From a virus (taxonomy: Duplodnaviria > Heunggongvirae > Uroviricota > Caudoviricetes), in the IMG/VR virus record IMGVR_UViG_3300013383_000019: a stretch of DNA of 54,578 nucleotides. One strand, 5' to 3'. Every line of letters starts with the position of its first letter. Position 1 is the stretch's first letter. The notes beneath the pieces are model-generated. The model saw only the letters and a program-made list of their open reading frames with translations, made no database searches and was not told where the DNA came from. Of this stretch, positions 1-53,179 are shown piece after piece. The translations under genes and the position numbers were made by a program.

Positions 1-1104
1 CCGAAAGAAAAAGGCAAACTCCTCATCGACGAAGACACCCGCTGGATCATCGAAAAGATATACGCGCTTGCGCTGGAAGGAAACGGCTACAATGTAATCG
101 CAAGGTATCTGAGGACGTCCAAAGTCCCTACCCCGGGCTGGGTTGGCTATAGCCGCTACGGCGCGTATTCGCAATACTATGAGAACGCCGCCGAAGAGAA
201 GAAAAGCTTCTGGCAAAGCTCCGCCGTGCGTTCCATACTGATGGATGAAACATACATTGGAAATACGATTCATTACCGCAGGCAAAAGATTTCGTACAAA
301 AGCAAAAAACGAATTCACAACTCCGCTGATGAGTTTTACCGGGTAGAAAATACCCATCCGCCTCTTATATCGCGCGAGACATTCGAGCGGGTTCAGGAAA
401 ATATTTCACGGCGGCGTCGTTCCTGCGGGGATGGGACGCCCCAGCTTTTCGCCGGTCTGCTAAAATGTTCAACCTGCGGGAAAGCGTTGAAAGCCCGTCC
501 CTGCTATGCTCCCGACGATAAAGCCTACGTCTGCCGGCAATATTCGGAATTCGGTAAAGAACACTGCACCGCGCATTACATAAGGCAGTCTACCCTCTAC
601 AATTATGTGCTATCACGGATACAGTATTGGACCTCGACACTCGCTGGGAACGAAATAGATTTTGCCCAGGAGATTATGAATTCTTCGCGCAAAGCAACTC
701 AGTCTAGTGGGGACAAGGAGCAAGCGAAGCTTGATGATAAAAAGCGGCGTCTACGAAAAATAGACGGGATGCTCGCCTCACTCTATGAGGATCGCGCCGA
801 AGGAAACATCACTCCGAACAATTTCTCGACGCTGCTCAAAAAATACCAAGACGAGCAAACCGCCCTTCAAGAATTCATCGCTGCCGCCGAAGAAGCACAA
901 CGAGCTACCGACGAAACCCAAAGAGGTCTTAACGAATGGGCTAACATGGTCAAACGTTACACCCATCCAACCAAACTGACTATCCCGATGCTCAATGCGC
1001 TGATCGACAAAATCGTAGTCCACGATAGACGCTGTGACCAGAATGGCAAACCAACGCAGAAAATAGAAATTTACTACAAGTTCGCCGGGAAGCTCGACCA
1101 ATAG
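1..1104 (+). CDS. Large serine recombinase (integrase), 5'-truncated by window
   Basis: Frame +1 open from base 1. Recombinase-domain motifs, zinc ribbon (CSTC...C...C), coiled coil and DUF4368-like C-terminus (LIDKIVVH...IEIYYKF). Ends in TAG, with an in-frame TGA at 1117-1119. Confidence 0.9.
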   Translation, partial: PKEKGKLLIDEDTRWIIEKIYALALEGNGYNVIARYLRTSKVPTPGWVGYSRYGAYSQYYENAAEEKKSFWQSSAVRSILMDETYIGNTIHYRRQKISYKSKKRIHNSADEFYRVENTHPPLISRETFERVQENISRRRRSCGDGTPQLFAGLLKCSTCGKALKARPCYAPDDKAYVCRQYSEFGKEHCTAHYIRQSTLYNYVLSRIQYWTSTLAGNEIDFAQEIMNSSRKATQSSGDKEQAKLDDKKRRLRKIDGMLASLYEDRAEGNITPNNFSTLLKKYQDEQTALQEFIAAAEEAQRATDETQRGLNEWANMVKRYTHPTKLTIPMLNALIDKIVVHDRRCDQNGKPTQKIEIYYKFAGKLDQ

Positions 1105-1204
1105 AATGTTTCCTTATGAAGGGGAACCCTTCCTTTACACTACGTAAGGAACTACTATACTACACAATGAACTACATCTCCTGCATTTGCATGCGTCCAA
1201 AAAC

Positions 1205-2774: not shown

Positions 2775-3175
2775 TATTCAGCCTGTTCGTCATTATTAAA
2801 CGCTTTGGCGAGCTCCTTCAGTGCCGCGGCACTCATCTGTTTCAGCGCCGCCTCAATAGCCGCGCGGTCGACCTTTAGCCCCGCCTGTTCCAGTTTCTGT
2901 CCGATGAGGGCCCACAGTTCGTCGTATTGCTTGGTGAGCTTGTTCTTGTTGAAATTCTTTCGAACTACGCCCGTCACGATCGTGGTCAACAGGCCGAGCA
3001 CAAAGCATAGCACCGCCACTGCCAGTTCGGTCAGGTCGAAAGCACCGGCAGCGTCCGGTTCAGTCACAGGTGCCACAGGAGCGGTCGGTTCAGCCGCTGT
3101 CTCCGCCGCGGCGATACCAACGCATACTGTCATCATAAAAACCTATGTGAGCAAAATGCAAAACACTTTATTCAT
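2774..3175 (-). CDS. Signal-peptide-bearing, LL-H holin-like membrane protein with in-frame TAG at codon 11 (3143-3145)
   Basis: AAGGAGG RBS, MNKVFCILLT*VFMMTVCVGIAAAE joins ORF 2774..3136; internal TM and IEAAL..M motif. Confidence 0.8.
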
Positions 3176-3189
3176 AATATTTCCTCCTT

Positions 3190-12842: not shown

Positions 12843-13184
12843 TCATCCCCCTTCGTAATTTACCGCGTTGATCTTCGGCATTACGTCAAAGGGGCCGTTG
12901 TATGTCGCGGTGCGGCGCTTCTCTCCGACAAACTCAATCGTAAGGTCGTACGTCCAATGCCCCTTCGGTATCTTGGCCGTCTCTTCATACGATATCGTCA
13001 GCGGATAAGCCCCCTATTCCTCGTCGTAATGAAGCTCCTGCTGGAACTGCGCCGCCCGGCAGGTAAAGTAAACGGCGGCAATCCAGGCCGGATTTATCGC
13101 TTCGCCAGCGTCGTCCAGCAACGTAAACGCGCGATCAACAGAATCGCCCTGCACGAATTCAATCGCGGCAGAGGTATCGTTCAT
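12843..13184 (-). CDS. BppU-like small baseplate protein (113 aa) with in-frame TAG at codon 57 (13014-13016)
   Basis: GGAGGTG RBS; MNDTSAAIEFVQGDS...HYDEE*GAYPLTISYEETAKIPKGHWTYDLTIEF...VNYEGG, ending at a TGA abutting the next gene. Confidence 0.8.
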
Positions 13185-13208
13185 GCTCTTCACCTCCATA
13201 GCACATAA

Positions 13209-13241
13209 CAAAAATGGGAGGAATTAAAAACTCCCCCCTCT
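13209..13241 (-). terminator. Intrinsic terminator
   Basis: GGGGGAG...TTCCTCCC hairpin followed by ATTTTTGTT on the - strand. Confidence 0.7.
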
Positions 13242-13281: not shown

Positions 13282-14457
13282 TTATGCTGTCGTTGTATCC
13301 ATCGCCATGACGTTCACAGTCACCGCATCCGCGGGCGCGTCGTCGATGCACGCGAACGTAAGGCTTCCCGCCGCCTGCGCGGAACAGTAGATTCCGCTCT
13401 CCCGCCACGCAGCCACCGAAGCCGGCGCGGGTTCCACAATAATTGTGTTGCTCGCCGTTACCATGTTCAGCCCTGTGCTGATGGTCTGCGCCTTCTCAGT
13501 CCATCCCGCCGCCGTCAGGGTGATGGACGTAACGGTCGGAGGAGCCGCATAATCTAGCCCCGCCACAGCCAGCGTCACCTTTCCGCCGGTCGCCCGCAGC
13601 ATGCCGGAACGCTGTGTCCCTGATGTGTTGGGGAAATCGGTCGCCGTGTTCGCCGTGATCTTGTTCGGTCCCATAATATTCTTCGAGGCGGGCGTTGTGT
13701 AGCCGTCGATGGGTGCCCAGCTCAGCGTACCGTCGTCCGCCACCGTGGGCACAAACGCAGGCCCCGCAACGCCCTGAGGCCCCTTGATGTTCGCAGCCGC
13801 CGGTGCGGTTTCTGTGTTGTCTTTTGTCCAGCTGATTCCGCCGTCCTCCGCCACGGTCGGCTTCCATACGTCGCCCGCGGGGCCTTTGATATTCTTTGTC
13901 GCGGGCGTGGCGTAGCCTTCAATCGCGCTCCAGCTCAGGTTGCCGCTGTCGTCCACGCTTGGAATGAACGCGGGGCCTGCGGGGCCATGAAGAGATCCCA
14001 TGTTCAGCCATGCGCTGTTGTTCCACATGTAGACCTCGTAAGCTCCGGCTGTGCCCACTGCATAAAAGTCGCTCTGCGCGGGGTTTGACACGCCCGCCTG
14101 CAAGGCCGCTAGCGTCGCGTACACGCCCTTGATTGTAAAGTTCTTGCCGGGATCGCCCTGTTCGCCCTTCGGTCCCGTGATGTTGCGTGCCGTCGGGTTT
14201 TCCAGTTCAGCATTGTTTGTCCATGTGATATTGCCGCTTGCATCCACCGTGGGGGTGAAGGTCGCGCCCCTGCGGCTGATAAGCGAATAGTTCGGGTCGT
14301 CGTTCGCGCCCGTCGGAGCCGTGCCGCTCACGTCTTTAAGCACAATGTAGCCGTTGCCCTCATATTCCACAATGTCCTATTTTTTGTATTCCGCGCTCGC
14401 ATCGTATTTGCCGCGCGGTACGGTTACAACGCGGCCGAGAGAAATTTTGTCTGCCAT
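13282..14457 (-). CDS. Tail fibre with collagen-like repeats (391 aa), in-frame TAG at codon 27 (14377-14379)
   Basis: AGGAGAG RBS; MADKISLGRVVTVPRGKYDASAEYKK*DIVEYEGNGY is the common phage N-terminal motif LG.V...RG.Y.....Y..LD.V.Y.G. Confidence 0.85.
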
Positions 14458-24632: not shown

Positions 24633-27600
24633 TCACTTGGATAACCTTATGCCGCCCACAGACTGAACCCGTCCGGATTTTTCCAGCACATGGTCGAAGA
24701 ATTTTTCGGCCAGTTCGTCATAGTCCGTGTCGTTGTCCAGCTTGTCCACCTGGATTACAACGTCGCCGAACGTCAGCGTCGGCTGAGAGCGGGAATTCGT
24801 CTCCGCGCCAAACGCCGGCATTGTCGGTACGTTAATTGTTTTGATCGCGTGCAGCGTGTCGATCATGTCCTCAAACAGTTCGGTCTGATAAGGCGAAAGG
24901 ACGCGCTCCGGCTTGCTCGGCGTACCGTCCAGCCATGCAAGGCCGGTCTTTGTGTTCAGGCCGCCCGAAGCATATTGCGATACGGTTGTTTTCCCATTAC
25001 CGCTTGCCGAGGGTCTAAGCGTGTCCTGGCTCGAGTTCCGAGGCGCGCTGCTGGTGCTGCTATAGCTTCTAATGGAACTGATAGCACCGCTGAGCATTGT
25101 TTGGTACTGAGCGCGCACCTGCGCCTGCCCAGCCGAGCCTCCCGCCGCCGCCAGGTGATTATTCAGCCAGCGCTTAGCGATTCTCTTAGCCGCGCTGTTT
25201 GCGGCAGACCTAGAGCTATATCCGGTATACACCTGGCCGTCAAACGTAAAAGACCAGAGCGTCTTAGGCTTCGAGCTGCCGTTAGGCTTTTGAGTAGAAC
25301 CAGGGCTGGGACTCGGACTCGGGCTGGAATCATATCCACCGTCATAACTGCCGCCATTACTCCCCGACGCCGGCATCACCGGCTGGTAATCATAGCTGCT
25401 GATATCCACCGCAACATCCTTGTAGGCGTTCTTCAGGTTCTCCAGCTGCTCTTTCCACGCGTCGACGTATGCCTCCGCCTGCAGCTTGCCCGCCGCCTTA
25501 TAGTCCGCACTGTTGTCCATCAGGAACTGGATAATCGCGTCGTCGCCCTTCGAGATAATTTCTTCAATTTCGTCCCAGTATGTGACGATCGCGCCGCGCA
25601 TGTCGTTGAGCATATCCTGCCAGCCGTTTGTGATATCCGTGCGCGTGGCGTCCGTGGAGTTTTTATACTCTTCGCTGTTCTCCTTCAGCCACTGCAGAAT
25701 TTCCTCGTCGGACTGCGCCATGATCTTCTGCACTTCTTCAATGAAATTGCGCGGGTTCGCCAGCAGGTCTTCGTAGTATTTTTCAATGTAGTCGGCGTAT
25801 TCTTCCGTGCTCGTGATCTGTTGATCGATCGCGTCCTGCTGGGCCTCGACTTCCTTCTCCGCCGTGTCCCATGCGATTTCGTCGCGCAGGTCTTTAATCT
25901 GCTCCTGCAGTTCCATCGCTTCTTTGCGCCGCGTCGAGTCGGCCGATATGCGCGCCAGTTTCGCTTCCAGCTTTTTCAGTTCAACCAGCTTTTCTTCTTC
26001 TTGCTGCGCTTCCTTGCGCGCGTTCAGCTGTTCCTGCAGCGCCTGCTTTTCTTCTTCCAGCGCGTCCTTTTTCGCGTCCGCCGTCTCAAGGATTTCGTCG
26101 CGTTCTTTTTCGTATCGCGCCTTGATGATATCGAGTATCGCTTCCTCTGTTTCGATCGTGCCCTGCAGCATGCGCTCCTTCAGCTCTTCCCGGTCCTCGA
26201 TCGCTTCCAGAATCGTGTTCCGCAGGTCGATCTCCATCTGCCGGATCTTGTTCTTCCATTCCTTAATTTCCTTGTTCAGTGCTTCGATATCGTTCCGGTT
26301 CTGCTTCAGCTGCTTGCTGTATTCCATGTGCTGCTGCTGCAAGCTCTTCAGATCGTCCGCCGCCTCAGAATAACCTTCCGCGGAGGTACTCATCGCGTTG
26401 ACTTCCGCCCGCTTGGCTTCCATCAGGCTTTCGATCTTCGAGAGGTTCGCCTGTATCGTATCCGTGTTAGCCTGTATCGCCTGCTTTTCGTATTCGATAC
26501 ATTTCAGCACGCCCTGAATTTCGCCGCGGCTTTCGAAGTACGCTTTCTCCAGCTCGATGATGGCTTTCTTGTGGTTCTGAATCGTATCAATCTGGTCGAG
26601 CACGTCCAGAAACCGCTCAATCTCGGAGGGGCCGCTGTTCCCGCTGCTGCCACTGCCTCCGCCGTAAGAACTGCTGGGGCTGCGGCGGCTGCTTCCGCCT
26701 CCGCCGCCACCACTGCGTCGGCTGCTGGAACCGCTTCTTCTGCCGTTGCTCTTCGAGCCAAGACCGGTGACGTTTACCTTGCCATTTTTGTCCAGGCTTA
26801 CAGTCGCGCCGTTTACGCTTGCCAGCTGCTCAATAAGCCCAAGAATAGCATTGGCAGTCTCATTGCCCTCAGCCGCCAATGCCTTTAGCTGCGAAATCCA
26901 TGTGCTGGGGTCAAGACTGATTCCTGTCAGCGTCAGCATTGAGCTGATCAACCATTCGACGCTGCTGGTCGCCATGTCCGTGTCCCCCGCCAGCAATGCC
27001 GCCGCCATAGCCAAATCATATTCAGAGTTGATCGCGAATCCGCAATAGTCCGCCAGATTCGCCAGTGCCGTAGTGTATGCGTCGGTGCCAGCCTGCGTCG
27101 TGTCCATCACGGTCGCAAGGTCTGCCTGCGCCAGCGCCAGGTCGTTCAGCTTTGTCCCGATGCCGGCGATGGATTTCAGATACTCCGCCTGGGACTTCCC
27201 GCTGTTGCTGATTACATCGACGGCTTCCTCCCAGATTTTATTCTGCTTGGCAAGCTGCGTGCCTTCTTTTGTCAGCCCCTCACGCGTCAGTTTCTTCGCC
27301 GCGTCCAGCGCGTCTTCGTGTGCGTCCGACATGTCGCCCAAACTGGTCACATAATCCTTGATCGCGTCCGAGCCTTCCAGCAATGTCTTCTGCATTGTTT
27401 TGCCGAGGCTGTTCCATACGGCGATAAACGCCTCCTCCGAGCCGGTGTCCAACGCCTCCTGAATGTTCGCCAAGGCCGCATTGTATTCCGTCGTACCGTT
27501 CTGCGCCTCATAAAGCGCGTCTGCTGTTTCCTGCAAGCTCCCGCGGCATTGTTCAAGCATTTCCACATAAGCTGATACAACGTCTTCCCAATCACTGTCC

Positions 27601-30600
27601 GGGTCGAAAAGTACGTTCCAGAAGCTGCCGTAGTCCTCGCGGAAGCCTTCTGCCAGCGTGGCGTTTTCCGTGTACATCTCGTAGATCTTTTCCCGCAGCA
27701 TTTCAATGGCTTCGGCTTTATCCTCCAGATTTGCCGAATCCATGAATACACCCGCCAGATCGTTGATCTGCCCAGAGTAACTGTTATCCGCCGCGGTCTG
27801 CGCTTCCGCGTTCAGCTTTTCGTTTTTCGCATATTCGGCCTGCTCCGCAAAGAAATCTTCCTTCGACGCCGAGGAAATATTCGCCAGCATTTCATAGACC
27901 TTTGCCAGTGCTTCCGCCCACGCACCCGTTTCGTCGGTCACTTCTACCGTCCCGGCGAGGATATTGTAAAGTTCAGGATAGGTCTGCGCGAAGCTCTCCT
28001 GCATGTCAGAAGACCATGTGTTAAATTCCTTCCGCGCGTTTTCCAGTCCGCCCGAAAGTCCCATCACGCCATTGGCGAACGTCGGTACCTGACCTTCCGT
28101 GAACGCCTTGTCCAGCGCGCCCACCTGGTCGGCAAACCCGGCCTCTTTCGCTTTCGCCAGCGCTTCCTGCGCTTTCAGATTTTCCGCCATCTCCGAACGC
28201 TCTTCGGCGTACGCCACCGTGGTTCCGTTGATAATACCCTTCAGGTAGCTGTATGCGTCGCCTTCCTTCATCAGCCCTGCGTAGATATCGCCCAGCATCG
28301 GGTAGGCTTTCGTCATCTCTTCCACCAGGTCTGCGTTCGCCGCATGCGCTTCATCCATTGCGGTCTTGAAAAGGCTCACGTCAAATTTCTTCGTGTCCGC
28401 GTTCATCGATTTGCTCAGAATGTCGCTCGTCGCATCCCGGTAATTGTTCTTCGCCGCGTCGGATGCTTTCTGTTTCTCCAGCCATTCCGCGTAGTATTTG
28501 CCGAAGCTCCCCATTTTTTCGGCCGCCGCATCCGCGGCCTCCCCCACGGCCGTAACCGAAGCCACCGCCGTTTCTTTCCACTTAACGAATTCCTCTTCAT
28601 TATAGTCGGGGAGCAGGTCGATCTTCGCGCCTTCAATTTCACCGTTCTCAACTTGCGCGTTGTATTCGGAAATATATCCGTTGATACCGTCGACGATTTT
28701 CTTGTAGCCGTCATAATCCACAGCTTCCGGCGCTTTCAGCATCTCGTTGTATTCGTCCATCAGCTTGGTGAATTCCGGCGAGGAAGCGAGTTCAGCTAGT
28801 GTGTCTCTGCACGTCGTGAACATTTCCGTGACCGAACTGAGCAATTCCTCTGTAACCGCTGCCGGGTTCTGTTCATACAACTTCTGCAGGAATGTAAACA
28901 GCTCGTCGCTGTATTCGCTCAGCGCGCTCTTGAAGTTGTCCGGGAGCACGTCGGCCATATCGGCTCCTTCAAGATTTTGCTTTACCGCGCCCACATAACT
29001 TTTAACCAGAGAAGCGGCCTTATTCAGCATTTCTTCCGTCAGCGCGTCTGCGTCTCCGCCAACTGAATTCCGCATCGATTCCACGATCGTGCCTATGAAC
29101 GAATCGATATTCTTCGTAATTTCCGCCGGCACATCCATAAAGCTGCTGTCCTGTCCGAACGCGTTCAAGCTCTGTTCAATGCTGTCCCACGCGTCGGAAA
29201 TACCGGCAGCCGCTTTCTCTGCGCTCGCCCCAACCAGCGTGTTGAGGTTCATCATCTCCATGTTGATGTCGTTACTGAGCTTATTAACGTATTGGCTCGC
29301 TTCAAGATATTCGTCTGCTATCGAATAATAATTCTCGGCGTCCGCAGTCATACCGCCCCACCATTCTCGGTTTTTAGCGCCCAGACTGCTGCTTTGAATA
29401 TACATATCCTGCAGATAATTTGTGAACCCGCGTTTAGATGCTTTCGCCGGATCTTCCAGCCCCTGTGTATATTCATCCCAGTATTTCAGTACATTCTTCT
29501 GGAGATCAACCTTGTCCATCTCCGCGTACGCGTCCTTAACCGTCTGAACCTGCTCCGCGAACTTGCTGAACGCGTCCAGCTGCGAGATCGAATTCTGCAG
29601 GTCCACCTGTTCCCGCAGTTCCTCGTTCATCGCCCGGATAGCTTCGCTGCCGCTGTTGTACTGGCCTTCCAGTCCTTCCAGCTTTGTCTGTAAAGTATAG
29701 GAGGTTCCGGACAACTGCGCGAATATCGCGTCCATCCGCTCCGTGTCGCTCGTCGTCTTGTTTTGCTTTCCGGCGAGTTTCGTGTATTCATCGATCAGCG
29801 GGGAGATCGTCCCGGTGTAATCCTTCAGCGTGCTCAGCTGTTCGCTGTAATCCGGCAGCTCTACCGCAGACGCTTTTTTGATCGCGCCGGTAACGGCCGT
29901 GATAACCGTAACAAGCCCCGCCAGCGCAGTGACGATCAGCCCGATCGGGTTCGAGGCCGATGCAATGCCAGCAACAAGCCCAATGCTTTTGATTGCCTTA
30001 ATCAGCGATACGATCTTGGTGAGCACCACCACAACTGCTCCAAGCGCAGCTGCCGCCGCGGGGATTGTAACGTTAAACCCTCTCAGGGATTCCGTGCCGC
30101 TCGCGATCAGGTCGACAAATCCGGCCAGTCCGTCATAAGCGCCTTTCATCCAGTCCGCGCTCAGCAGTCCATAAAGGCTTTCCAAAGACGACTTCAGCCG
30201 TCCCTGTGCCGCCTCAACCGATTCCATATACACGCTGTATTTCTGCGTCGCTGTGCCGGCCGCGTTCAGCGCGCCCTCATAAAGTTCAAACGCACGGCTG
30301 CCGCCCTCTGCGCCCTTAGCCATGTCGCTCATCAATGCGAGGAAGGTGTTCTGCTGTCTTGCGCCGGCGATGGTGGTCGAGATATACGCCTTCTGTTTTG
30401 CGTCCAGCGTGTCCCATTGTTCGGCAATTTCCGTCATGATGTCGGACATGCTGCGCCAGTTGTTCTCTTCGTCCAGCAGTTCAATACCGAGCGTGCCCAG
30501 CGCTTTTGTCACGTCGTTGATCTGGGTCGCGTCCTCTTCATTAAAACCCTTCTGCTTTATGGAGTGCATGCGCGCCATCAGAGAGTTGAACGCCGTACCG

Positions 30601-32641
30601 ATTACCTCAGGTGCCTGCCGCGTTTTTTCGCTGACGGTCGCAATATACGCGCCAAGCCATTCAAAGCTCACGCCAAATTCTTCGGCGGACGCAGATGCTT
30701 TCTGCATCGCCACACCAATTTCATCGGCCTTTCTGTTACTTTTATGACCTACAAATATTCTGTAGGCGGATAGGATTTTCATCCTACCTCTGCAACTTAA
30801 ATAAGGTATGTTGCAGAACAGACTGTATCTTCATCCCTAAATAGGGAGTCCACCGTAGCTACATCATCACTGATGCAACATTCAGTCGTTACCGCGCTTA
30901 ACACGCATCGGAGTTACCCTCCTCAGGGCTTTCCCCGAACAAGTGGATTCTTTTATAACACATTACTGTGTATACGGGCTATTTGTCGTTAACCCGATGC
31001 CGATTCGTCTCCCAAGTATGCAAACACATCTACGACCTTCTGCGCAGACAAGTCCATTGTATTGGTGGCTGCCGTAACCAGTTCAGCCGCCTCTGTAAAT
31101 TCCAGCGAACTGATCTTCGCGTATTGCGTCGCCGCCTTGATACGCCGGTTTGTTTCGTCCTCATCCAGGCCCTGCCGCCAGAATTCCACGGCCGCCTTCG
31201 CAATGTCGGTAGAAGATACGCTCATCTCTTTTGCCAGCGTGCGGTATTCCGCGCCCAGCTTTGCCGCCTGCTCTTCGCTGTACCCCGAAACAATTCGGAT
31301 CTCGTTCATCAGATCATAGTATTCCGACGCGTAGGAGATCGCATCCTGGAACATGTTCTTAAGCGTATTGGTTGTCCATGTAATCGCCTGTTCTGCAAGC
31401 TTGGTTCCAATTTTGTCAAGGAACTGCCCGTTAATATCCAGCATTTCGCCCTGCTTGGAATACAGGTCGTTGACCTGGTGCAACGTGTTCTCAATTGCAG
31501 TAAGTTCTTCTTGGGAAAGCTGGAGCTTTTTCAACTGCTCGGCTACCTCATCGGTGGCTTTCTTCGCCTCATCCCCGACTTTCGCCCACGCTTCCATGCC
31601 GTCCTTATCTTTGTTCGCGTAAGACCTGCCGATACCGCTCAGCGCGGTCTGCATTTGCGCTAACGCCTTCTGTGCTTTCGCCAGCTGCTCTGCCCCGGCG
31701 TTTCCAGTGTTCGTGTTCTGCTTTGCCAGCACGTCGGAAATTTTCTGCTCCAGCGTAAGCAGCTGCTGTTTCCGTTCGGTTGTCAGGTCAAGCTTTTGAA
31801 TTTCCTCGCTCTGCTGGGTCAGCAGCTTTTTAGACGCTTCAATCCGCTCCTGCCAGTAGGACGTATCCTGTCCGCTTTTCTGTGCGCTGTTGTAGTTGCG
31901 GACATACTCGGCCAGCCGCTTGTATTCCTCCGTCATCTGCTTCAGGCCGGTTTCTCCGCTGCCGCTTTCTTTCAGCGCGCTCTGATATTGCTTGATGATT
32001 TTCGCGCGCTCTTCGCTCAGCTTATTCAGGTTTGAAAGCTGTTTCGCTTCGTCGCTCAGCGTCGAAGACTGTTCCCTGCTTTTTGCGATCAGTTCGCCGT
32101 ATTTCTGGATTTCCGAGTCCAGCCGCTTCGCCTGGTCGCTGCCCTCCGCAGCAGAAAGCCGCTGCGTTCGCAGAGAATACATTTCCTTAAGATAGCCGAT
32201 CTGTTCCTTATAAAGCGCGTTCGCCTTATCGATTTCCTTTGCGAGCTCACCCTTGGTTGTGGTCGTCCGGCTCAGCTATTCTCCCTGCTTCCGAACCTCC
32301 GTTATCGCAGCCCCGAGGTCTTTATAGCCTTTGGTGGTCTGCGTCATGCTGCCGTCTTTCGCTAGCTTGGAGGTGACGCTCATCACCCGTTCAATCTCGG
32401 TTGTCGCGCCGGCAAATCCAGTAGCCATTTCCTTCCCGGCCTGCCCGCCCGTCTTGGCCGCGCTCTGAACCTCGTCCTTGAGCCGCGTCAGCATCGCCTT
32501 AATCTGCTTCTCCACTACGTCGCTCATGTTCAGGTTCACGCCGGTGCCAATAGACTTCAGAAGCTTATTGACTCCCTCGACGTCCTTATTGAGCTTGCTC
32601 AGATCCAGCCGCAACGAGGCGATATATTTTTCGTCCGCCAA
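24633..32641 (-). CDS. Tape measure protein, about 2581 aa: exon 32641-30992 (TAG at codon 122, 32276-32278) plus exon 30728-24633
   Basis: ORFs 32276..32641, 30989..32182 and 24633..30782 join: KQGE*LSRTTT readthrough is in frame, and splicing restores AYLGDESASG|ADEIGVAMQK in the TP901-type tape measure domain. Confidence 0.9.
30729..30991 (-). ncRNA. Group I intron (263 nt, no ORF) in the tape measure gene
   Basis: P1 CGGGU|UA with UAGCCCG (U-G at splice site), P7 GACUG/CAGUC (GAAGAUACAGUC), terminal G, frame restored. Confidence 0.9.
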
Positions 32642-35886: not shown

Positions 35887-37335
35887 TTACGCCCAGTCGA
35901 CAGTTGTCTCCTCGGTCTTGGTAACGACGTTGCCGTTTGCGTCGAACGGCTCATAGGTCAGCGACCACATCTTGCCGTCTGCACGCTTCGGGTCGATGGA
36001 GCTGAAGGTAACGCTGTTGGTTGCAGCTGTCTTATCATTTATCTTCAACATGGTTCGCTATGCCATGCCCGCGTCTTTACGCTGCTGCATCTTTATATAT
36101 ACATGCAGATGAGACTATATCTTCCTCCTCTTTCTCAGGTAGGAGTCTTCCCATTTGGAGCGCCAATCACTTGCGCCCTACTCCCTTGCGGGATAGTCGT
36201 TAGGCTTTTATGGAATTAATCCTTTTTAGCACGGTGAGTTATCTTACCGGCGCTGCATCAACCGATAAGACTTTCTCCGTTTAAGGAAGGTTTTGTCAAG
36301 CACATTTCTGTGCAGGGAACCTATCTGTTAAGCTCGTGTCGAAACCCGGTGCCGCGCTTACGCGGACACGGTAAAGATGAATCTGAATTTCACCCTTCTG
36401 GGTAGATTCGGTGCAGTCAGTACCACTGGAATACCTTATGTTCACACAAGGTCGCTACTTCTTGTGCCGCTGCGGTGTACAACTTCGCAGCCGCTGCATC
36501 TTTATATATACATGCAGAGCAGACTATATCATGCTCCAACTTGGAGCCTCACCATTTCGAACGCCAATAGCTTGCGCCCTACTCTACTCGCTTCTTCGGT
36601 TTCCCTATGCTTTCGATAGTCGTTAGAGTTTCACAGTCAACGCTTGGTTGATTGATTACTACGGCAGGTTACCCTCATCGAGGGCTTTCCCCGTTTAGAT
36701 GAGTTATTCGATAAGGATCTCTCCTTAAAGGGTCAATTCAGTTTAACCGGCCATGTGGCGTACACCTCGCCCTTGGACATCGGGGTGGTTGTGCTGATGC
36801 CGATGCGGGTCGCGCCCACGCTGCGGCGCTTGTAAGAAACGCGGATGGTTTCGCCTTCGGTGTAGTCGCCTTCGGCGAAGGTGATCTCCGTCTTGGGTTC
36901 AGTGTCAGCTGTGCCCTTGGTCACCGCAACGGCAAATTTACCCACGGCAGCGGCTTCCGCCCGCTCCATATTACGGATCGCGACGGACTCAACCTGCACC
37001 TCGTAGGGGATTGTAATCTTGTTTTCCGTAACGTCGTAGCGCTTTGTCTCGAACTTACCGTAGTCGCCGGTCTGATCAGTCACCGCGTTCGCCATGGTAA
37101 ACATATCCATGGTAAACTGGGCGGAAGCAAAGCTCAGTTCCAGCGTCTTGTCGGTATCAATAACCGCCAGCGGGAAGAAGCTGTGACCGCCGTTGATGGT
37201 GATCGAGTTAGATGTGTTCGAGAAGTTTGTGCTGGTCTATTCGTCGAAGTTGAACACTGCGCCATCGCAGCGGATGAAGTCAACGTTTGCAACGTCGGCG
37301 ATATAACCATCATATTTCGGGATGTAAATGGCCAT
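35887..37335 (-). CDS. Major tail (tube) protein, 280 aa: exons 37335-36745, 36433-36331, 36035-35887; TAG at codon 33 (37237-37239)
   Basis: AGGAGG RBS; MAIYIPKYDG...FNFDE*TSTNF; spliced product TWPV|YSSGTDC...GFDTS|YKTAATNSVTFSSIDPKRADGK; exons total 843 nt. Confidence 0.88.
36036..36330 (-). ncRNA. Group I intron 2 of the tail tube gene (295 nt, no ORF)
   Basis: P1 GAGCU|UA with UAGGUUC, P7 GACUA/UAGUC (GAAGAUAUAGUC), terminal G. Confidence 0.9.
36434..36744 (-). ncRNA. Group I intron 1 of the tail tube gene (311 nt, no ORF; junction ambiguous by 1 nt)
   Basis: P1 GGUU|AA with UUGACC, P7 GACUA/UAGUC, terminal G; shares TCTGCATGTATATATAAAGATGCAGC and GTAGGGCGCAAG blocks with intron 2. Confidence 0.9.
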
Positions 37336-39247: not shown

Positions 39248-39520
39248 TTACTCACCGCCTTCCACAATGTTCTGCGGCAGGCGTTCAATTTCGCCGGCCT
39301 TGTCCAGCAGCTTGTGCTTTATCCTGCAAAACGCCGCCCAGGATTCATTAGACCATTCGCTCTTCGGCTTATTGTCGTTCAGCAGATAAGCCATATCCTC
39401 AACATCTGTGATCAGCCGCAGCTAATCCATTCGCAGCATGCCCGTGTACTCGTCCAGCCGGTAGCTCTTATCATATTGCGGCTCCAGCTTTTCATTATAA
39501 TATGTAACCTTAACCTTCAT
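39248..39520 (-). CDS. Head-tail block protein (90 aa), in-frame TAG at codon 33 (39422-39424); missed by the ORF track
   Basis: GAGGTG RBS; MKVKVTYYNEKLEPQYDKSYRLDEYTGMLRMD*LRLITDVEDMAY...VEGGE-TAA fills the gap exactly and abuts the next ATG. Confidence 0.82.
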
Positions 39521-43250: not shown

Positions 43251-44837
43251 TTACCCATCTGTGCTGGGCTTCGGCTGCTTGCCCGTTATCGCGTTCGCCG
43301 GATCGCTCGTGCGCTCCGATTCGTCCACTTCAGGCCGTCCAACCTTCCCCTCGATCAACGGCTCGTCCGGTTCCGTATTGGAAACCGTGTCATTGTCTGT
43401 GCTGTTGCCTGCGTCTGTTTCTTTCTTCGGCATCAACACCTGCGCATTGCCGCTGTTATCCTCTGTTTTCTTCCGCTCGACTTCCTGATCGTAGTCATAG
43501 CCGTAGGTTTGCAGCAGCGTCTTGTCGGACACCACGCCCTTCTCCCACAGCTTCATACACGCTTCGCGGAAGTCCTTGTCGCCAGAGAGGTCGACCGGCG
43601 GGAATGTAAACAGAGGGATGCTGGATTCCGCGCTATGCGGGATAGAAGCCGCGCCGCCCGCGCCGTTCAGCCTGCGATTGATTTTGTTCATCATCTCGCA
43701 GAAGCTGTCCTTCGCCTGACGGATACGCATCGCCGCCGTCTTCATGCTGACCTGCGCGCTCGCGAACGTCGAGCCGTCTTCCGACCGGCCGCTGACGATC
43801 ACGCCGCTGATTCCGCCGGCATTCAGGATTTCGGCGTTCACGCCCTTGTACTTGTCGTACTCGAACATGTCGTCCATCTTCGGCTGGATCACTTCTGCCG
43901 CGCACCAGTTATTGGTAACCGCCAGTGCGGTGCCCGTCATGGCGCTTTTGAAGATGTTCGACACCTGCCGCAGCGCGTCGACTGTCGGGACCACTTCATT
44001 CTTCGGGTCGCCGTATTTTACATGGAGAAAAGCCATCGCGCCCAAGTTCAGCAGCGAATCTTCATACTGCGAAATAATTTCCTTCTTGGAAAACGCGCGC
44101 AGGCATGTCGCCACCATCGGCACCGCATACCGCACCCAGTCTTCCTTCAGGTCCTGCAATACGAACGTATTCGCCGGATTCAGCTGGACATATTCCTTGC
44201 CTTCCTTTACGGCCGTCTGCACTTCTTTGGGGAAACCGCGCAGCCGAACGTCCAGCAGCTCGTCGTCCAGGTAATCCTTTTTTGCTTTAACGCCTTCGCG
44301 CTTCAGGTCCTGCGTAATGGTGCGGCAGTTGAATTCCAGCACCGGTTCTCCATCTACCATGACGTTCGCAATACGGATCATGTGTACCGGCAAAGTAATA
44401 AGAGAACCATCATCCATCAGGTATACATATACGTTTCCGTATTTGTAATATTGGAGGAAGATGCTCCTCATCTTATCTTTCAAATGAATCCTGTCATAGT
44501 AGTCAAGATATTTCTTCTTAACCTTCTCATTCGCGCCAACAAGTCGAAAGTCATCCGCAATACTAAACGGAGTGTAGACTTCCTTGATAATGCCGCGATA
44601 CAAAGGATCGGCGTCTACGTAATAATCGCTCAGCTGAAACAGACTTGTAATATTTGTCTGTTTATCTCTCAGTATCGTATCATAGTCATAACTCGCAAGA
44701 TCACCTGTATAGGTAATGTTGCGGTTATTGAACGTAATGCTTACATCGTCTTTGGCCGCGCCCACCGCGATTTCCCTCGGAGGGGCGAGCGAAGACTGCT
44801 GAGGCGAACGGTTCCATAGCCTGTTAAAAAATCCCAT
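43251..44837 (-). CDS. Portal protein (528 aa)
   Basis: Follows TerL; AGGAGG RBS, MGFFNRLW start, YY.YGNVY motif. Confidence 0.8.
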   Translation of the reverse strand: MGFFNRLWNRSPQQSSLAPPREIAVGAAKDDVSITFNNRNITYTGDLASYDYDTILRDKQTNITSLFQLSDYYVDADPLYRGIIKEVYTPFSIADDFRLVGANEKVKKKYLDYYDRIHLKDKMRSIFLQYYKYGNVYVYLMDDGSLITLPVHMIRIANVMVDGEPVLEFNCRTITQDLKREGVKAKKDYLDDELLDVRLRGFPKEVQTAVKEGKEYVQLNPANTFVLQDLKEDWVRYAVPMVATCLRAFSKKEIISQYEDSLLNLGAMAFLHVKYGDPKNEVVPTVDALRQVSNIFKSAMTGTALAVTNNWCAAEVIQPKMDDMFEYDKYKGVNAEILNAGGISGVIVSGRSEDGSTFASAQVSMKTAAMRIRQAKDSFCEMMNKINRRLNGAGGAASIPHSAESSIPLFTFPPVDLSGDKDFREACMKLWEKGVVSDKTLLQTYGYDYDQEVERKKTEDNSGNAQVLMPKKETDAGNSTDNDTVSNTEPDEPLIEGKVGRPEVDESERTSDPANAITGKQPKPSTDG

Positions 44838-44851
44838 CGCCTGTCGCCTCC

Positions 44852-46540
44852 TTAAAATTTTGTAACCAGCCCAATGCACTCCTCAGAGGAGCCCTGGATG
44901 TATTTCTTTTTGCGCAGTTCTTCCAGCCCACTGATATATAGCAACGCCATGCCCAGCGAACTGTACCGGTCTTTGTGCTGCGTTGATTTTGCCACGTCGT
45001 ACACGACCGCGCCCGCCTGCGTCGCTTTCGCAACCACGTTGCCCATCTCGATCTGGAGCGCGTCCGCTTCGATGAAAATCGCTTTCTCTTCCTGCGTCAG
45101 TGCTTTGCTTTGCGTTTCGTCATCATCTTCATCCCGCAGCATCACCTTGTTCCCAAGCACATGGCGCGAGTTAACCGGCAGCTCAAGCGATTCCTGCTCG
45201 AGAGCGATTGTTATGGAGGATACGATCTGCTGGTTTACCGTGATATTCGCAATAACCGGATGCAATAGCGGCACCGCATTGTGGATAATAGATTTCTCTG
45301 TGTCCATTACCAGCGGCGGATATTCCTTCCCATTTATGTCCACCCACGGCTGTGCCAGGAATTGCGGGAAAGCGTCACCCAGGCCGCGATGGTCGAATAC
45401 AACCTTGACTGTCCGCGGGAATTTCACCAGCAACTTTCGTACCTCGCCAGCCAACGCGTCCAGCCGTTTGCCGTGAAAAGATCGAATGTAGACAAGTTTC
45501 TTAATGTAGCCTCCATCGTCGCATTCGATCAATTTGATTACCGTAATAACCGCGTTGTCTGCATACTTCGAAGCCGACGTAGCCAAGTCGACGCCAATTA
45601 TGTAGTCTGATGTGCTCGATTTCGGCATTGCCACCTCGACGTCTTTCAGCACGCGGCATTTCTCCGTCAGTTCGTATGGGAACAAACTTCCCGCCTCAGC
45701 GCCGACAAAAATCGAATCATACTCCATTGCGAATTTGGATTCTTCCATGTCCCGGCGTTCCTTCTCGAAAAACGCCATAGGAGAAATCCCGACACGCGCC
45801 GCCGCCTCATAGTTTAACGCGCAGGCAAAGCAGTCTTTCTCGCCCTTTGCCATGTTCCGCAGTGTCCCGGTGAAAGCGTCGAAAAAATAATTGCTCTTCA
45901 GACACGCACTGGTGATACTAATCATCTTGGATGGATAGTCCGGTATCCCAAGCTGTACGCAGTTGTCGCGCGTCGTATTTCGAACCGGCTTCGCGATGGC
46001 TTCAAGGTCTTCCTTTTTTACCTCGGGTGCTTCGTCGATGACAATAACTTTCGCACGGTTTCCGCGGAATGTACCAATTGAATAGCTCTCAATTTTGCTT
46101 CCGTTCCGCAGCCGGCATACACCCTTGTTGCGGGCAAGCTGTACGGCGGAATGCCCGTTTGTTTCAATTTCCCGCAGTATATCCGTGTTCCGCACAAAGT
46201 AGTCGTCGATCTTTTTGATAACCAGCGTTGCCTGCTCCGCTGTGCCGCTGATGACCGCAATCAGGCTTCCGGGGTACAACACCCCCATCGCCAGACAGCA
46301 CACCGCCGTCAGCCATGTCTTACCGAAGCCGCGGCTCTGCACAAAATAGATTGTCTCGCGGTTTCCAAACATCCGGGCTTCGACCTTCTGGACATCTTTA
46401 AGCTTTATCTTGAAGTAGTCCTCGATGAAAACATCCAAATGTGTTCGCCAATACCAGATCTGCTCCTCCCAGCCGGGATCATTTTTGATCTCACGAATCT
46501 GGGTTGCTTTCATGATTCTGCTGTGGTCAATTGGGTTCAT
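44852..46540 (-). CDS. terL: Terminase large subunit (562 aa)
   Basis: Walker A SRGFGKT, Walker B VIVIDEA, nuclease IGVDLA and KDRYS motifs. Confidence 0.92.
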   Translation of the reverse strand: MNPIDHSRIMKATQIREIKNDPGWEEQIWYWRTHLDVFIEDYFKIKLKDVQKVEARMFGNRETIYFVQSRGFGKTWLTAVCCLAMGVLYPGSLIAVISGTAEQATLVIKKIDDYFVRNTDILREIETNGHSAVQLARNKGVCRLRNGSKIESYSIGTFRGNRAKVIVIDEAPEVKKEDLEAIAKPVRNTTRDNCVQLGIPDYPSKMISITSACLKSNYFFDAFTGTLRNMAKGEKDCFACALNYEAAARVGISPMAFFEKERRDMEESKFAMEYDSIFVGAEAGSLFPYELTEKCRVLKDVEVAMPKSSTSDYIIGVDLATSASKYADNAVITVIKLIECDDGGYIKKLVYIRSFHGKRLDALAGEVRKLLVKFPRTVKVVFDHRGLGDAFPQFLAQPWVDINGKEYPPLVMDTEKSIIHNAVPLLHPVIANITVNQQIVSSITIALEQESLELPVNSRHVLGNKVMLRDEDDDETQSKALTQEEKAIFIEADALQIEMGNVVAKATQAGAVVYDVAKSTQHKDRYSSLGMALLYISGLEELRKKKYIQGSSEECIGLVTKF

Positions 46541-47463: not shown

Positions 47464-48648
47464 TTACAATTTGATTGGATACACGCACCGGCGGCCATAA
47501 CCATGTTCTATCAGCATAGCGATCGCCCCGGCGGTTCCCCCGTAGTGTTTTGTCTGCGCATAACGGTCAGGGCCGCAAATGCTCGGTATCCGAACGATCA
47601 CGCTGTTCCCGTCCGGCGTTACGCCGGATGGATATTCCTGCTCCCGATGCTTGTGCGCACAGATGAAAAAATCGATCGGCTCCCCGTAAAGGTTCACCGC
47701 ATTGCGCGCGATATCTGAGATGGAGCGTTCTTCGTCTCCGTGTAGCAGGAGAAAATTAAACCCTTCCACGCTCACGTAGTTCATCCGCTCGCAGCTCGCG
47801 TCGATATAAATTCCGTCCTCCGCAAGCCGGCTCTCAAGATACCACATAATGATCTTCTCAAGATTTTCCTCTTCAAACTCGCGGTTCTTTGCTTTCAGCG
47901 GGCGAACTTCAGAATGATTGCCGCTTACCGCATGCACGGAAACCAGACATCCTGTTTCGATGTACAGTCGCTGTATCCATTTCGCAAGATATTCCGCCAG
48001 CTGGATTGTGCTCTCCACAAGCCCGTATTCCAGCCGCATCAATTGAGATTGTCGGAGCATCCCGTCCAGCATGTCGCCCATGAGGAATAGATACAGCGTG
48101 TGCGGATGTTCCTTTACTACGATCTTTTTCGTCTCGACCAGAAGTCTTTCCATTCGGCTTCTGAACACATTGTGATCGTACTGATTTACAACTTCTCCGC
48201 GCAGCCCCTTGATCTTTATCTCTGCCCCATAATGGAAATCGCCGACAGCCAGCGTCAACGCCTTGTTGCCATTGTCGCTGTCAAGCCGCACCGGAGTCCA
48301 TTTGTATTGCCCTGCCGAAGGCAGCGCTTTCACCGCCTCACGGATCGTCTCCCGTAATAGTTCGCTGCGAGACTGTGTGCGATACATCTGGTTGACTTGC
48401 TTCGTCAAGTCGCGCATCTTCTGCCGTTCGATGAAACCGGCTTCCTGCCCGCCGCCCAGCATCCCTGCGTCAGCCGCGAGCTTTATTCCCACGCCGGCTT
48501 TGCGCAGCGTTTCAGCGTTGATGCCAAGGTCATATTCCTCAACGATCTCGCTCCAATCCTTGTCGCTCAGACCGTTTTTCTTTTCCTTAATGACGCCGAT
48601 CAGGTTTCTTTTTTCCTGCGCCGTCAGCTCCTCCAACAATCTGCTCAT
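47464..48648 (-). CDS. Calcineurin-like metallophosphoesterase (394 aa)
   Basis: GDFHYG, MGD, GNH, HGD and H.H motifs. Confidence 0.88.
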   Translation of the reverse strand: MSRLLEELTAQEKRNLIGVIKEKKNGLSDKDWSEIVEEYDLGINAETLRKAGVGIKLAADAGMLGGGQEAGFIERQKMRDLTKQVNQMYRTQSRSELLRETIREAVKALPSAGQYKWTPVRLDSDNGNKALTLAVGDFHYGAEIKIKGLRGEVVNQYDHNVFRSRMERLLVETKKIVVKEHPHTLYLFLMGDMLDGMLRQSQLMRLEYGLVESTIQLAEYLAKWIQRLYIETGCLVSVHAVSGNHSEVRPLKAKNREFEEENLEKIIMWYLESRLAEDGIYIDASCERMNYVSVEGFNFLLLHGDEERSISDIARNAVNLYGEPIDFFICAHKHREQEYPSGVTPDGNSVIVRIPSICGPDRYAQTKHYGGTAGAIAMLIEHGYGRRCVYPIKL

Positions 48649-49823: not shown

Positions 49824-49900
49824 TGGTGAGCGGTGAGGAGTTCGAATCCTCAACTCGCGAGATTAGAAGTCGCTGTGTCTGCCAATTGCACCAACCGCCC
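49824..49900 (-). tRNA. Amber suppressor tRNA (anticodon CUA) with Leu-type identity elements
   Basis: GGGCGGT TG GTGCAATTGGCAGACAC A GCGAC TT-CTA-AT CTCGC GAGTT GAGGA TTCGAAC TCCTC ACCGCTC A CCA; anticodon at 49864-49866; A73, A15-U48, A20a, G21. Confidence 0.85.
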
Positions 49901-49974: not shown

Positions 49975-49977
49975 AAA

Positions 49978-50050
49978 TGGAGCCGAGGGGATTCGAACCC
50001 CTAACCTCTCGCGTGCAAGGCGAGTACGCTGCCAATTGCGTCACGGCCCC
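49978..50050 (-). tRNA. tRNA-Ala(UGC), CCA not encoded
   Basis: Cloverleaf, G3-U70, anticodon TGC. Confidence 0.95.
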
Positions 50051-50133
50051 AAACGCCGGTTTCCCGGCGTCCAGAAAGGAGGTATTCAATGAAAAGCCGG
50101 CGTCGAGGCAGCAACTCTCCGCCGACACGATGC

Positions 50134-50209
50134 TGGAGCCGTCTCTCGGACTCGAACCGAGCGCCTGCGCTTTACAAGAGCGCTGCTCTGCCAAATGAGC
50201 TAAGACGGC
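50134..50209 (-). tRNA. tRNA-Thr(UGU)
   Basis: Cloverleaf, anticodon TGT, encoded CCA. Confidence 0.95.
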
Positions 50210-50211
50210 AA

Positions 50212-50282
50212 AGCGCGATACGGGATTTGAACCCGCTACAACGCCTTGGAAGGGCGTTATGTTACCGTTACATTAATCGCGC
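50212..50282 (-). tRNA. tRNA-Gly(UCC), CCA not encoded
   Basis: Cloverleaf, anticodon TCC, U73. Confidence 0.93.
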
Positions 50283-50396: not shown

Positions 50397-50467
50397 TTGC
50401 GCAGCCGGGATTCGAACCCGGATTACAGGAACATGAATCCCGCGTGCTGCCTTTACACTACCGCGCG
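50397..50467 (-). tRNA. tRNA(CAU), initiator-like
   Basis: Anticodon CAT, C1-A72 mismatch, G run at 28-30 rather than 29-31, CCA not encoded. Confidence 0.8.
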
Positions 50468-50844: not shown

Positions 50845-50931
50845 TGGCGGAGAGAGCCTGATTCGAACAGGCGCGCCTTACGGCCTATCGGTTTAGCAAA
50901 CCGACCTCTTAAACCGCTTGAGTATCTCTCC
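50845..50931 (-). tRNA. tRNA-Ser(GCU)
   Basis: Class II cloverleaf with long variable arm, G73, encoded CCA. Confidence 0.95.
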
Positions 50932-51033: not shown

Positions 51034-51288
51034 ATGAAAACATAGAGAATTCTGCTCGTCATCCTTTTGTGTGCGGCGTTCGCCGTATCGTTCCTGGCGG
51101 ATTATTTCCCGCTACCGCGTGCGATTGTCAGTATAGCAAAAGGTGTTTGTGCCGCCAAGGAATTCTTGGCGCTGCTCTTTCCCGCGACGTATGCCACGTA
51201 GCTGGAACGACCACTTGGGCGGAAGCGCTGGAAAACTCGCCTGATAAGAAGATCCAAACGGCGCAAACAAACAGGGGCTGCCCGATAA
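51034..51288 (+). CDS. 84-aa membrane protein, paralog B, two in-frame TAGs (codons 4 and 56); missed by the ORF track
   Basis: GGAGG RBS; MKT*RILLVILLCAAFAVSFLADYFPLP...YAT*LERPLGRKRWKTRLIRR; same length as A and alignable without gaps. Confidence 0.85.
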
Positions 51289-51672: not shown

Positions 51673-52461
51673 TCATTTTTTCACTTTTGCAAAAACTTTT
51701 TCAACTTTTTCCAAAGTTTTTTCATCCGCGATTCCATTCGCTGGCAATGTGTTGTCCTGCTGAAATCTCTTCACCGCTCGCTGTGTGAGCGCACCGAACT
51801 TACCGTCCGCCGCCCCACAGGAATACCCGATTTCATTCAGCCGATTCTGAAGCATACGGACATCGTTCCCACTCGACCCACGCTTCAATATAGTTCTTTT
51901 TATAGGGCTCGGCTTAGCTTCTGGTTCGGATTCGGGTTCACTGCTTCCTGTATATGTAAGTGCCGGCATCTCGAACCAGTGTGTAAAATTCCGATCCGCG
52001 ACATTCGCCTCGACAATCCCTGTGGCAAACCCGCGAGCCTCAACCAGTTTCCCGCCTCCGATATAAACACCCACATGCCCGCTACGCCACAGTATCAAGC
52101 CAGGACACTCCGGCAACGTGTTGATTATTCCCCATTTCAGCCCGCGCTGCTTCGCATAGGAAAACATCCCGTTCGCGCCTCTATCGGGGCAGCCATTCGA
52201 CCCATATCGCATCTTGCCGGTTTCTTCGTCCGTCCACATATACCCCTTGATGAGCCCGATACAGTCTGCGCATTTTTTGCCGGCTTCTATATCTGCGCGA
52301 TAGCGCGGCATCCTTGCCGCCGTATAATGCGCCGGGTACTGAGCTGCCTTGCGCTTCAACAGCGCGGTTGTACAATCATGGCAATGCGTGCCATACCAAT
52401 AAGGTTGTCCAACCCATTCTTTTACAAATGCAACCAGACCGGCCGCAGTCTTTATCGCCAT
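51673..52461 (-). CDS. NlpC/P60-family peptidoglycan hydrolase with PG-binding domain
   Basis: DC.GLIKG catalytic Cys, GHVGVYIG, C-terminal L..GS.G.DV..LQ..L...ADG.FG..T..AV..FQ. Confidence 0.9.
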   Translation of the reverse strand: MAIKTAAGLVAFVKEWVGQPYWYGTHCHDCTTALLKRKAAQYPAHYTAARMPRYRADIEAGKKCADCIGLIKGYMWTDEETGKMRYGSNGCPDRGANGMFSYAKQRGLKWGIINTLPECPGLILWRSGHVGVYIGGGKLVEARGFATGIVEANVADRNFTHWFEMPALTYTGSSEPESEPEAKPSPIKRTILKRGSSGNDVRMLQNRLNEIGYSCGAADGKFGALTQRAVKRFQQDNTLPANGIADEKTLEKVEKVFAKVKK

Positions 52462-52462
52462 T

Positions 52463-53179
52463 TCAGCTCACCCTCTCAACAAACTCATCAACTATACGGT
52501 TCAAATCCTGATCGAAGAACGCAACAATCTTTCCATTCTTTACAGCGCACGCAATATGATCCATATCATAAAGCTCGCCCTCGCGGGTCTGCTTCACGCC
52601 ATATTGTTCTACCTGCAAAGAAATATGGTATCGGTTGCCAAACAGCTCAAACTCATTGCCTGTGTCAACAACCGGGAAAAAGAATTCACACGCGCCGAGC
52701 TCATTTCGAATTTGCTCGGAGCGGACAATGCGTGATACTCGCTTCGGCTTCTTTTTCGGGGCGGCTCTGCGCCGCTCCATGCGCTCAGCTTTGCGGTCAA
52801 GATTCTCAAGCAGAATCTCAAACCCGCTTTCGTCTTCATCTTCGGGGGGAGCACCATTGCCGTAAAGAGTGTATTCCACGCTGTGGGGGCAGGAAGATAC
52901 CGGGACTTCCCTCTTACCATTCAGAATATCCTTGTAATCAGTCACGATACCTTCTGTGTCGGAACGCATCAAAAAATATGCAAGCCCGTCGAGGAAGGTC
53001 TTCACCTTATCCTCCGGAGTCCGCTGATCATAATGCCGCGTGCTGATCCAGTTGTTTTCGCAATACTGCTTCCAGACTTCGATCTATTCGGCTATCGCCT
53101 TAGACCTCTGTTCACTGTCTGCAACGCGCAGCTTCTTTACTTTCCCGTTCGGGGTAATAACATTGTAACCAAGTATAAT
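52463..53179 (-). CDS. Conserved phage protein with in-frame TAG (53084-53086); start uncertain (ATT 53179, ATA 53176 or TTG 53209)
   Basis: GGGAGGG RBS, then ILGYNVITPNGKVKKL...SKAIAE*IEVWKQYCENNW...DKVKTFLDG in frame with ORF 52463..53005. Confidence 0.75.

Follow-up and report, generated by a model that had tools for sequence, protein, structure and literature searches.

The DNA analysed here, which we call the window, is a stretch of 54,578 nucleotides that forms part of an uncultured siphovirus-like gut phage. Six tRNA genes were found by ARAGORN in a row on its minus strand, in the order Ser, Met, Gly, Thr, Ala and, last, a tRNA with the anticodon CUA. The cluster is positioned between an endolysin-like gene and the packaging module, and the same order with the CUA tRNA last was found again in the related phages L226-L228. 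Further genes of the window encode a 1224-aa tail protein, collagen-like fibres and a serine integrase. The main features are as follows.

20586-21665, minus strand: distal tail protein gene
24633-32641, minus strand: tape-measure gene
43251-44879: portal gene
44852-46540: large terminase gene
47464-48648: nuclease gene near the CUA tRNA, used as bait for relatives
49824..49900, minus strand: tRNA(CUA), putative amber suppressor (ARAGORN; Rfam, 39.9 bits; orthologues; covariation; nearest neighbours are Leu tRNAs)
49977-50051, minus strand: tRNA-Ala(UGC) (ARAGORN, Rfam)
50134-50209, minus strand: tRNA-Thr(UGU) (ARAGORN, Rfam)
50212-50282, minus strand: tRNA-Gly(UCC) (ARAGORN, Rfam)
50397-50467, minus strand: tRNA-Met(CAU) (ARAGORN, Rfam)
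50845-50931, minus strand: tRNA-Ser(GCU) (ARAGORN, Rfam)
51130..51158, minus strand: sigma-70-like promoter match upstream of the tRNA cluster, TTGGCG-17-TATACT with TG (a consensus match only)
51673-52461: endolysin-like gene

The CUA tRNA gene is 77 nt long, and its score against RF00005 was obtained in a local search (E 1.6e-6; gathering score 29). The Rfam gathering run over the whole window omitted both this gene and the Ser tRNA, and both were above the cut-off when searched locally. As read from the sequence, the acceptor stem begins with G1-C72, G2.U71 and G3-C70, and the 3' end consists of A73 and a CCA that is encoded in the gene. U8 is present, the D stem has three base pairs (G10-C25, U11-A24, G12-C23) closed by C13.A22, and the 9-nt D loop, AAUUGGCAG, contains G18G19 and a following A. 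The anticodon stem is composed of four pairs and a C31.C39 mismatch, and it carries a 7-nt loop (U32 U33 C U A A37 U38). The variable loop is only 5 nt long (GAGUU), which places A15 opposite U48, and the T arm has the loop UUCGAAC on a stem with A53-U61. Thus, all of the sequence features listed in the preliminary description, namely CUA at 34-36, A73, the D arm, A15-U48, the 5-nt loop, C31-C39 and A53-U61, can be read in the sequence. Among the properties of an elongator tRNA in RF00005, the score above the cut-off, U8, A14, G18G19, U33 and a UUCRA-type T loop were all found. The exception is the near-universal G53-C61 pair closing the T loop, which is replaced by A53-U61 in all five orthologues, and the Rfam score is modest. 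The minimum free energy fold (z = -1.2) misfolded the D arm, as is usual for tRNAs, and is uninformative by itself.

ARAGORN labelled the gene "Pyl", which reflects the CUA anticodon only. tRNA-Pyl has an atypical fold, with a small D loop that lacks G18G19, a 3-nt variable loop and a long anticodon stem; the G18G19, the 9-nt D loop, the 5-nt variable loop and the standard T loop of the present tRNA contradict that assignment.

To collect relatives, we used the nuclease gene as bait. An orthologous 77-nt CUA tRNA was found at the same place in four phages (L226, L227, L228 and L230), the nucleases of which are 95, 79, 75 and 71% identical to that of the window, respectively. CUA, U33, A37, A73 and the D arm were invariant across the four orthologues, and the 30-40 pair changed from A-U to G-C, a compensated change. 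Position 31.39 varied among them (C.C, C.U, A-U and A.C). In the L228 orthologue, a fully paired A31-U39 closes a clean 7-nt loop, CUCUAAA, and the alternative register of the loop with the anticodon UCU (Arg), which the preliminary description had named as a possible refutation, is ruled out for this reason. Further, a single cloverleaf accommodated 13 short-armed tRNAs of the phage family (98.1% of cells), and 19 of its 20 pairs had changed on both sides (none of 500 shuffles reached that value); A14, A15, G18, G19, U48 and A73 were invariant. Judged by these comparisons, the CUA tRNA is a real conserved gene and not a chance occurrence. Other searches yielded little: the exact tRNA pattern with a free anticodon had no match among viral contigs, and a looser pattern combining the D loop and CUA gave 138 matches, of which only four were tRNAs. 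When 14.6 kb of the window was compared with the phage collection by Megablast, no match was obtained. A TerL bait recovered no relatives among genome contigs and only two (49%) among viral contigs, and the stretch retrieved from these two contained no tRNAs.

We examined the identity of the tRNA by comparison with a reference set built from two Clostridia genomes and with the tRNAs of the phage family. The D arm (U8 to A26) was identical at 18 of 20 positions to that of cellular Clostridia tRNA-Leu(UAG), and its best matches in the two reference genomes were all Leu tRNAs. In a comparison of 147 tRNAs with the anticodon masked, each CUA tRNA had a tRNA with a Leu anticodon as its closest non-CUA neighbour; the nearest neighbours of the window tRNA were the short-armed Leu(UAA) of L230 and Leu(CAA) of L228. 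Short-armed phage tRNAs with Leu anticodons were present with CAA in L228, L208 and L209, with UAA in L230, L208, L209 and L210, and with AAG in L209. From position 8 through the D arm to the 5' strand of the anticodon stem, the suppressor and the short-armed Leu tRNA of the same phage were identical at 28 of 31 bases in L228 and at 25 of 26 in L230. The features retained from the Leu tRNAs of the family are the D arm (3-bp stem, 13.22 mismatch, A14, A15, G18G19), U48, A73 and the T-loop partners. These comparisons show that the CUA tRNA descends from the phage family's own tRNA-Leu genes. The statement in the preliminary description that CUA is one change from Leu CAA was right, and UAA to CUA was likewise counted as one change.

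Several determinants in the leucine identity set of PMC9976931 were found in the CUA tRNA, namely A73, A14, A15-U48, and G18G19 with the following A in a Leu-type D loop. The long variable arm, which is the hallmark of type II tRNAs, is absent. In E. coli, the identity set of LeuRS comprises A73, A15-U48, G18G19 and A20a, and the anticodon and the long arm are dispensable (PMC9976931). What the preliminary description had given as established for LeuRS agrees with this report, in which A73 and tertiary elements matter and the anticodon does not.

A neighbouring gene of the cluster, tRNA-Ala(UGC) at 49977-50051 on the minus strand, keeps G3.U70, but in place of the D arm usual for Ala it has the D loop AAUUGGCA. 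Because of this D loop, a Leu-like D loop alone is no proof of leucine identity in the window phage.

The relatives also bear on how the short form of the tRNA arose. L209 encodes a 90-nt CUA tRNA with a long variable arm and L208 a 75-nt CUA tRNA with a 5-nt loop, and the 5' half of the latter is identical to that of the 90-nt tRNA at 42 of 44 positions. Since the family contains both versions, the long arm was lost within it. More distant relatives (L216-L219) have long-armed CUA tRNAs of 84-85 nt. What appears to be new here is the family of short-armed Leu-type tRNAs together with the way in which the short form arose.

Related tRNAs were also seen outside this group. Clostridia genomes and one viral contig contain Leu-type CUA tRNAs of 83-85 nt with a long arm (L027 at about 3103-3187, G001:C175:11097-11178; L022; L031; L133), and their D arm is identical to that of the window suppressor at 18 of 20 positions. 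In a Clostridia genome from sheep gut, a prophage that encodes a serine recombinase, a DUF2800 nuclease, PolA and ThyX is integrated beside gyrB, and just within it lies a 78-nt short-armed tRNA(CAA) with C13.A22 and the D loop AAUAGGCAG (L232 at 9187-9264, G001:C105:13186-13263). The tRNA cluster of the related phage L208 contains a tRNA with the four-base anticodon CAUA (4275-4348; ARAGORN).

We then turned to the use of TAG in the genes of the window. The in-frame and terminal TAGs and the residues or codons found at the same sites in relatives are as follows.

1102..1119, plus strand: end of the serine-integrase gene (1-1119), the only TAG found as a terminator; a second stop follows five codons later
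3143..3145, minus strand: codon 11 of a 133-aa gene (2774-3175), in its hydrophobic N-terminal segment
13014..13016, minus strand: codon 67 of a 123-aa gene (12843-13214); CAG (Gln) in L003 and L224
14377..14379, minus strand: codon 27 of the tail-fibre gene (13282-14457); conserved in L003
21579..21581, minus strand: codon 29 of the distal tail protein gene (20586-21665); full-length homologues span the site
32276..32278, minus strand: about codon 122 of the tape-measure gene; conserved in L003
37237..37239, minus strand: codon 33 of a major tail-like gene for a virion structural protein; L001 and L002 have Ile
39422..39424, minus strand: codon 33 of a 90-aa gene (39248-39520); TTG (Leu) in L209, ATT (Ile) in L001 and L002
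50569..50823, plus strand: gene for an 84-aa membrane protein; TAG is codon 4 (50578) and codon 10 (50596), and L226, L227 and L230 share both
51034..51288, plus strand: paralogue of the preceding gene, also for an 84-aa membrane protein; TAG is codon 4 (51043) and codon 56 (51199)
53084..53086, minus strand: within a gene of roughly 247 aa, function not assigned; conserved in L226-L230

TAG has been nearly removed as a terminator in the window phage, and single in-frame TAGs lie mostly near the 5' ends of genes. The stops of 41 curated minus-strand genes were TAA in 25 cases, TGA in 16 and TAG in none, and read-through of the integrase TAG adds only five residues because of the back-up stop. 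About a dozen TAGs were found in frame, one or two per gene, and eight of 12 fell in the first eighth of the gene (binomial tail 2e-5 under uniform placement). The genes that carry them encode tail, fibre, tape-measure, virion and small membrane proteins. The recoding of TAG in the window is sparse, and when the lengths of ORFs over the whole window were computed with read-through of TAG, TGA or TAA, all three lengthened ORFs, TAG least, so that TAG was not singled out. The signs by which phage recoding is recognised were all present, namely CUA in a 7-nt loop on a phage, in-frame TAG in conserved genes and avoidance of TAG as a terminator.

In the distal tail protein gene, there is no start codon for 65 codons after the TAG; the column of this TAG contains S, E, D, K, F or Q in distant homologues and is too variable to name a residue. 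The column of the tail-fibre TAG (14377..14379) contains Leu in the one well-aligned distant homologue and Arg in a second, poorly aligned one, and that of the TAG at 53084..53086 contains V, M, L, L, A, V and T in distant relatives. Codon 10 of the first 84-aa gene (50596) aligns with Ile of its paralogue, and opposite the TAG at 51199, L230 has CTT (Leu) and the paralogue has Phe. Altogether, L, I, V, M or F is found opposite six of the TAGs that belong to the window itself. The two 84-aa paralogues, each with a TAG at codon 4 and a second TAG, which three relatives share, lie antisense within the tRNA cluster and adjoin the endolysin-like gene; their products are possibly holin-like proteins.

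The residue that corresponds to TAG was judged from alignments in which all frames were translated with TAG as X and the window genes were aligned to those of relatives. At 45 unique sites, a relative had an in-frame TAG where the window had a sense codon. The window residue was Leu at 28 of these (62%, compared with a background of 7.3%; binomial p 6e-21), V at four, M and I at three each, Q at two, and G, R, T, S and W at one each. The partner codons for Leu were mostly CTG, CTT and CTC, which are two to three changes from TAG, in keeping with synonymous drift within Leu rather than chance neighbours. In L003, TAG stands in place of the L of G.LSW, a repeat motif of the fibre; almost every repeat aligned from distant homologues has L, I or V in this column. 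L209 and L221 have several TAGs each in their terminase, portal and nuclease genes, and TAG appears to serve as an ordinary Leu codon throughout these genes in such more heavily recoded relatives. The leucine identity put forward in the preliminary description is supported on three independent grounds of comparison: the similarity of the D arm and of the whole molecule to Leu tRNAs, the paralogy with short-armed CAA and UAA tRNAs of phages and the prevalence of Leu at TAG-aligned sites.

Differences of another kind were also seen. At five sites (21581, 13016, 25121, 31453 and 44843), of which the first two are the window's own TAGs, close relatives differ by CAG (Gln) and TAG; one TGG/TAG difference was seen among relatives. 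CAG to TAG is the sole first-position transition that creates TAG, and TGG to TAG is the other possible transition. The five CAG/TAG sites taken alone would suggest Gln. We read them as single C-to-T transitions, which would represent tolerated Gln-to-Leu changes at variable positions. They are the main reason why our confidence in the leucine reading is not higher.

Taken together, the CUA tRNA is probably a functional phage-encoded amber suppressor of leucine identity. In the mechanism that we propose, the LeuRS of the host, which is blind to the anticodon, would charge the CUA tRNA with leucine, and the charged tRNA would insert Leu at UAG in competition with release factor 1. Full-length late proteins would then be made only when the CUA tRNA is present, and TAG would act as a translational gate. 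The term "synthetase-free" in the preliminary description held for the window and extends no further than the window.

Among the other explanations, the charging of the tRNA with another amino acid (for example, Lys via U35) or with a mixture, with TAG sites that tolerate any residue, is improbable. CUA suppressors can be mischarged, the residues aligned with TAG also include V, M, I, Q, T, G, R, S and W, and many of the window's TAGs are at variable N-terminal positions. Against this, a share of Leu as high as that found, with partner codons that differ from TAG by two to three changes, would hardly arise if TAG were not equivalent to Leu; Lys was seen about once, in a weakly aligned stretch, and the architecture and the paralogy of the tRNA are specific to Leu.

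A suppressor that inserts glutamine, as in the published TAG-recoded (code 15) phages, is very improbable. The reading of TAG as Gln in published phage surveys and the five CAG/TAG differences, including those at 21581 and 13016, speak for it. However, Gln was not enriched at the TAG-aligned sites (two of 45, compared with a background of 3.5%), as code 15 would demand, and TAG replaces conserved hydrophobic residues in the G.LSW motif, at terminase and portal positions and in membrane segments. Further, the CUA tRNA has G1-C72, whereas the reference Gln tRNAs have U1 and those of the phage family A1, and its top neighbour was never a Gln tRNA.

That the gene is a decaying or non-translational tRNA-like element, with its TAGs read through in some other way or marking real truncations, is hardly credible, because the low Rfam score, the C31.C39 mismatch and A53-U61 are set against an encoded CCA, against a 77-nt gene that is kept with its CUA and with a compensated stem change in four orthologues at 71-95% nuclease identity, against the absence of TAG from the ends of all 41 genes and against conserved in-frame TAGs in essential virion genes with N-termini conserved across the TAG.

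We compared the leucine-type suppressor, as the favoured reading, with known systems. Leucine-inserting amber suppressors derived from tRNA-Leu are known from E. coli (the supP/leuX type) as laboratory mutants of long-armed cellular tRNAs. The phage tRNA resembles them in its tRNA-Leu body and in the one-base change of the anticodon to CUA, and the supP/leuX tRNA is charged by unaltered LeuRS. Unlike these mutants, it occurs naturally, as a conserved gene of phages, has a variable loop of only 5 nt and is tied to a systematic use of TAG. Because LeuRS ignores the anticodon, a Leu-type suppressor needs no change of synthetase recognition, and one base change in a phage tRNA-Leu gene would be enough for a change of the code, with no new enzyme. 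It would be the simplest route to such a change.

A Leu-type tRNA with a 5-nt variable loop is also known as the short-loop (type I) tRNALeu(CAA) of Streptomyces coelicolor and as animal mitochondrial tRNALeu, which are charged by a LeuRS that also handles long-armed tRNALeu (PMC6614811, PMC9976931). In contrast to these sense readers of cells and organelles, the CUA tRNA is borne by a phage and reads a stop codon, and its D stem of three pairs with the 13.22 mismatch is that of the long-armed type. In Streptomyces, one bacterial LeuRS charges tRNALeu with either a short or a long loop, and the loop needs at least five nucleotides to work (PMC6614811). However, the LeuRS of E. coli fails to charge the natural short-loop tRNALeu of Streptomyces (PMC6614811), and the competence of the host LeuRS for the CUA tRNA is no given for that reason. 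The natural series of long-armed, 75-nt and 77-nt CUA tRNAs bears on what a bacterial LeuRS needs in a tRNA.

Like the code 15 gut phages (crAss-like, Lak and phAss-1), the window phage has a CUA tRNA and a host on the standard code, presumably relies on the host synthetase and has its in-frame TAGs concentrated in genes for structural and lysis proteins. In code 15 phages, TAG is Gln; in contrast, TAG of the window aligns with Leu, and the tRNA is derived from tRNA-Leu. A survey of phage recoding observed only TAG-to-Gln and TGA-to-Trp changes and leaves leucine unmentioned, and TAG is read as Gln in phAss-1 (bioRxiv 10.1101/2021.08.26.457843, PMC9523058, PMC10607447). We found no paper on TAG-to-Leu in phages in the literature searched, which was itself a limited set. 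TAG is Leu in the chlorophycean mitochondrial code (NCBI table 16; TAG as L was confirmed by translation), which is genome-wide and organellar, unlike the present case, in which a virus overrides the code of its host. Stop recoding in phages is annotated by default as TAG to Gln, and a lineage in which TAG is Leu would be mistranslated. The window phage can probably write leucine with TAG in late genes, as far as the tRNA and the alignments tell, with only the charging enzyme of its host.

The idea of late-gene gating in recoded phages fits the set of TAG-bearing genes and the position of the tRNA cluster, from which we infer gating. The proposed gate on the timing of translation is open to direct test through the single early TAGs of the late genes. 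A wider reading, which we offer tentatively, would join these points: the phages would possess private hybrid tRNAs (CAA, UAA, AAG and CUA) that combine the D arm of a long-armed Leu tRNA with a short loop; the CUA tRNA would be a one-gene master switch that works through the host LeuRS; and one N-terminal TAG per gene would lock tail, fibre and candidate lysis membrane proteins until the tRNA accumulates. The loss of the arm might be adaptive, for example, in evading host factors that recognise long-armed tRNAs.

Matches resembling group I introns were seen in two of the genes that carry in-frame TAGs. The tape-measure gene contains about 209 nt (30783-30991, minus strand) that are absent from L003, with the break after ...GGGT, and this interruption gave a weak Rfam match to group I introns (23.2 bits, E 0.012). 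The major tail/virion structural gene, which holds the TAG at 37239, contains two further matches that resemble group I introns, both without an ORF, at 36092-36340 and 36501-36754 on the minus strand; they score 38.1 and 35.7 bits (E about 1e-6), less than the cut-off of 50.
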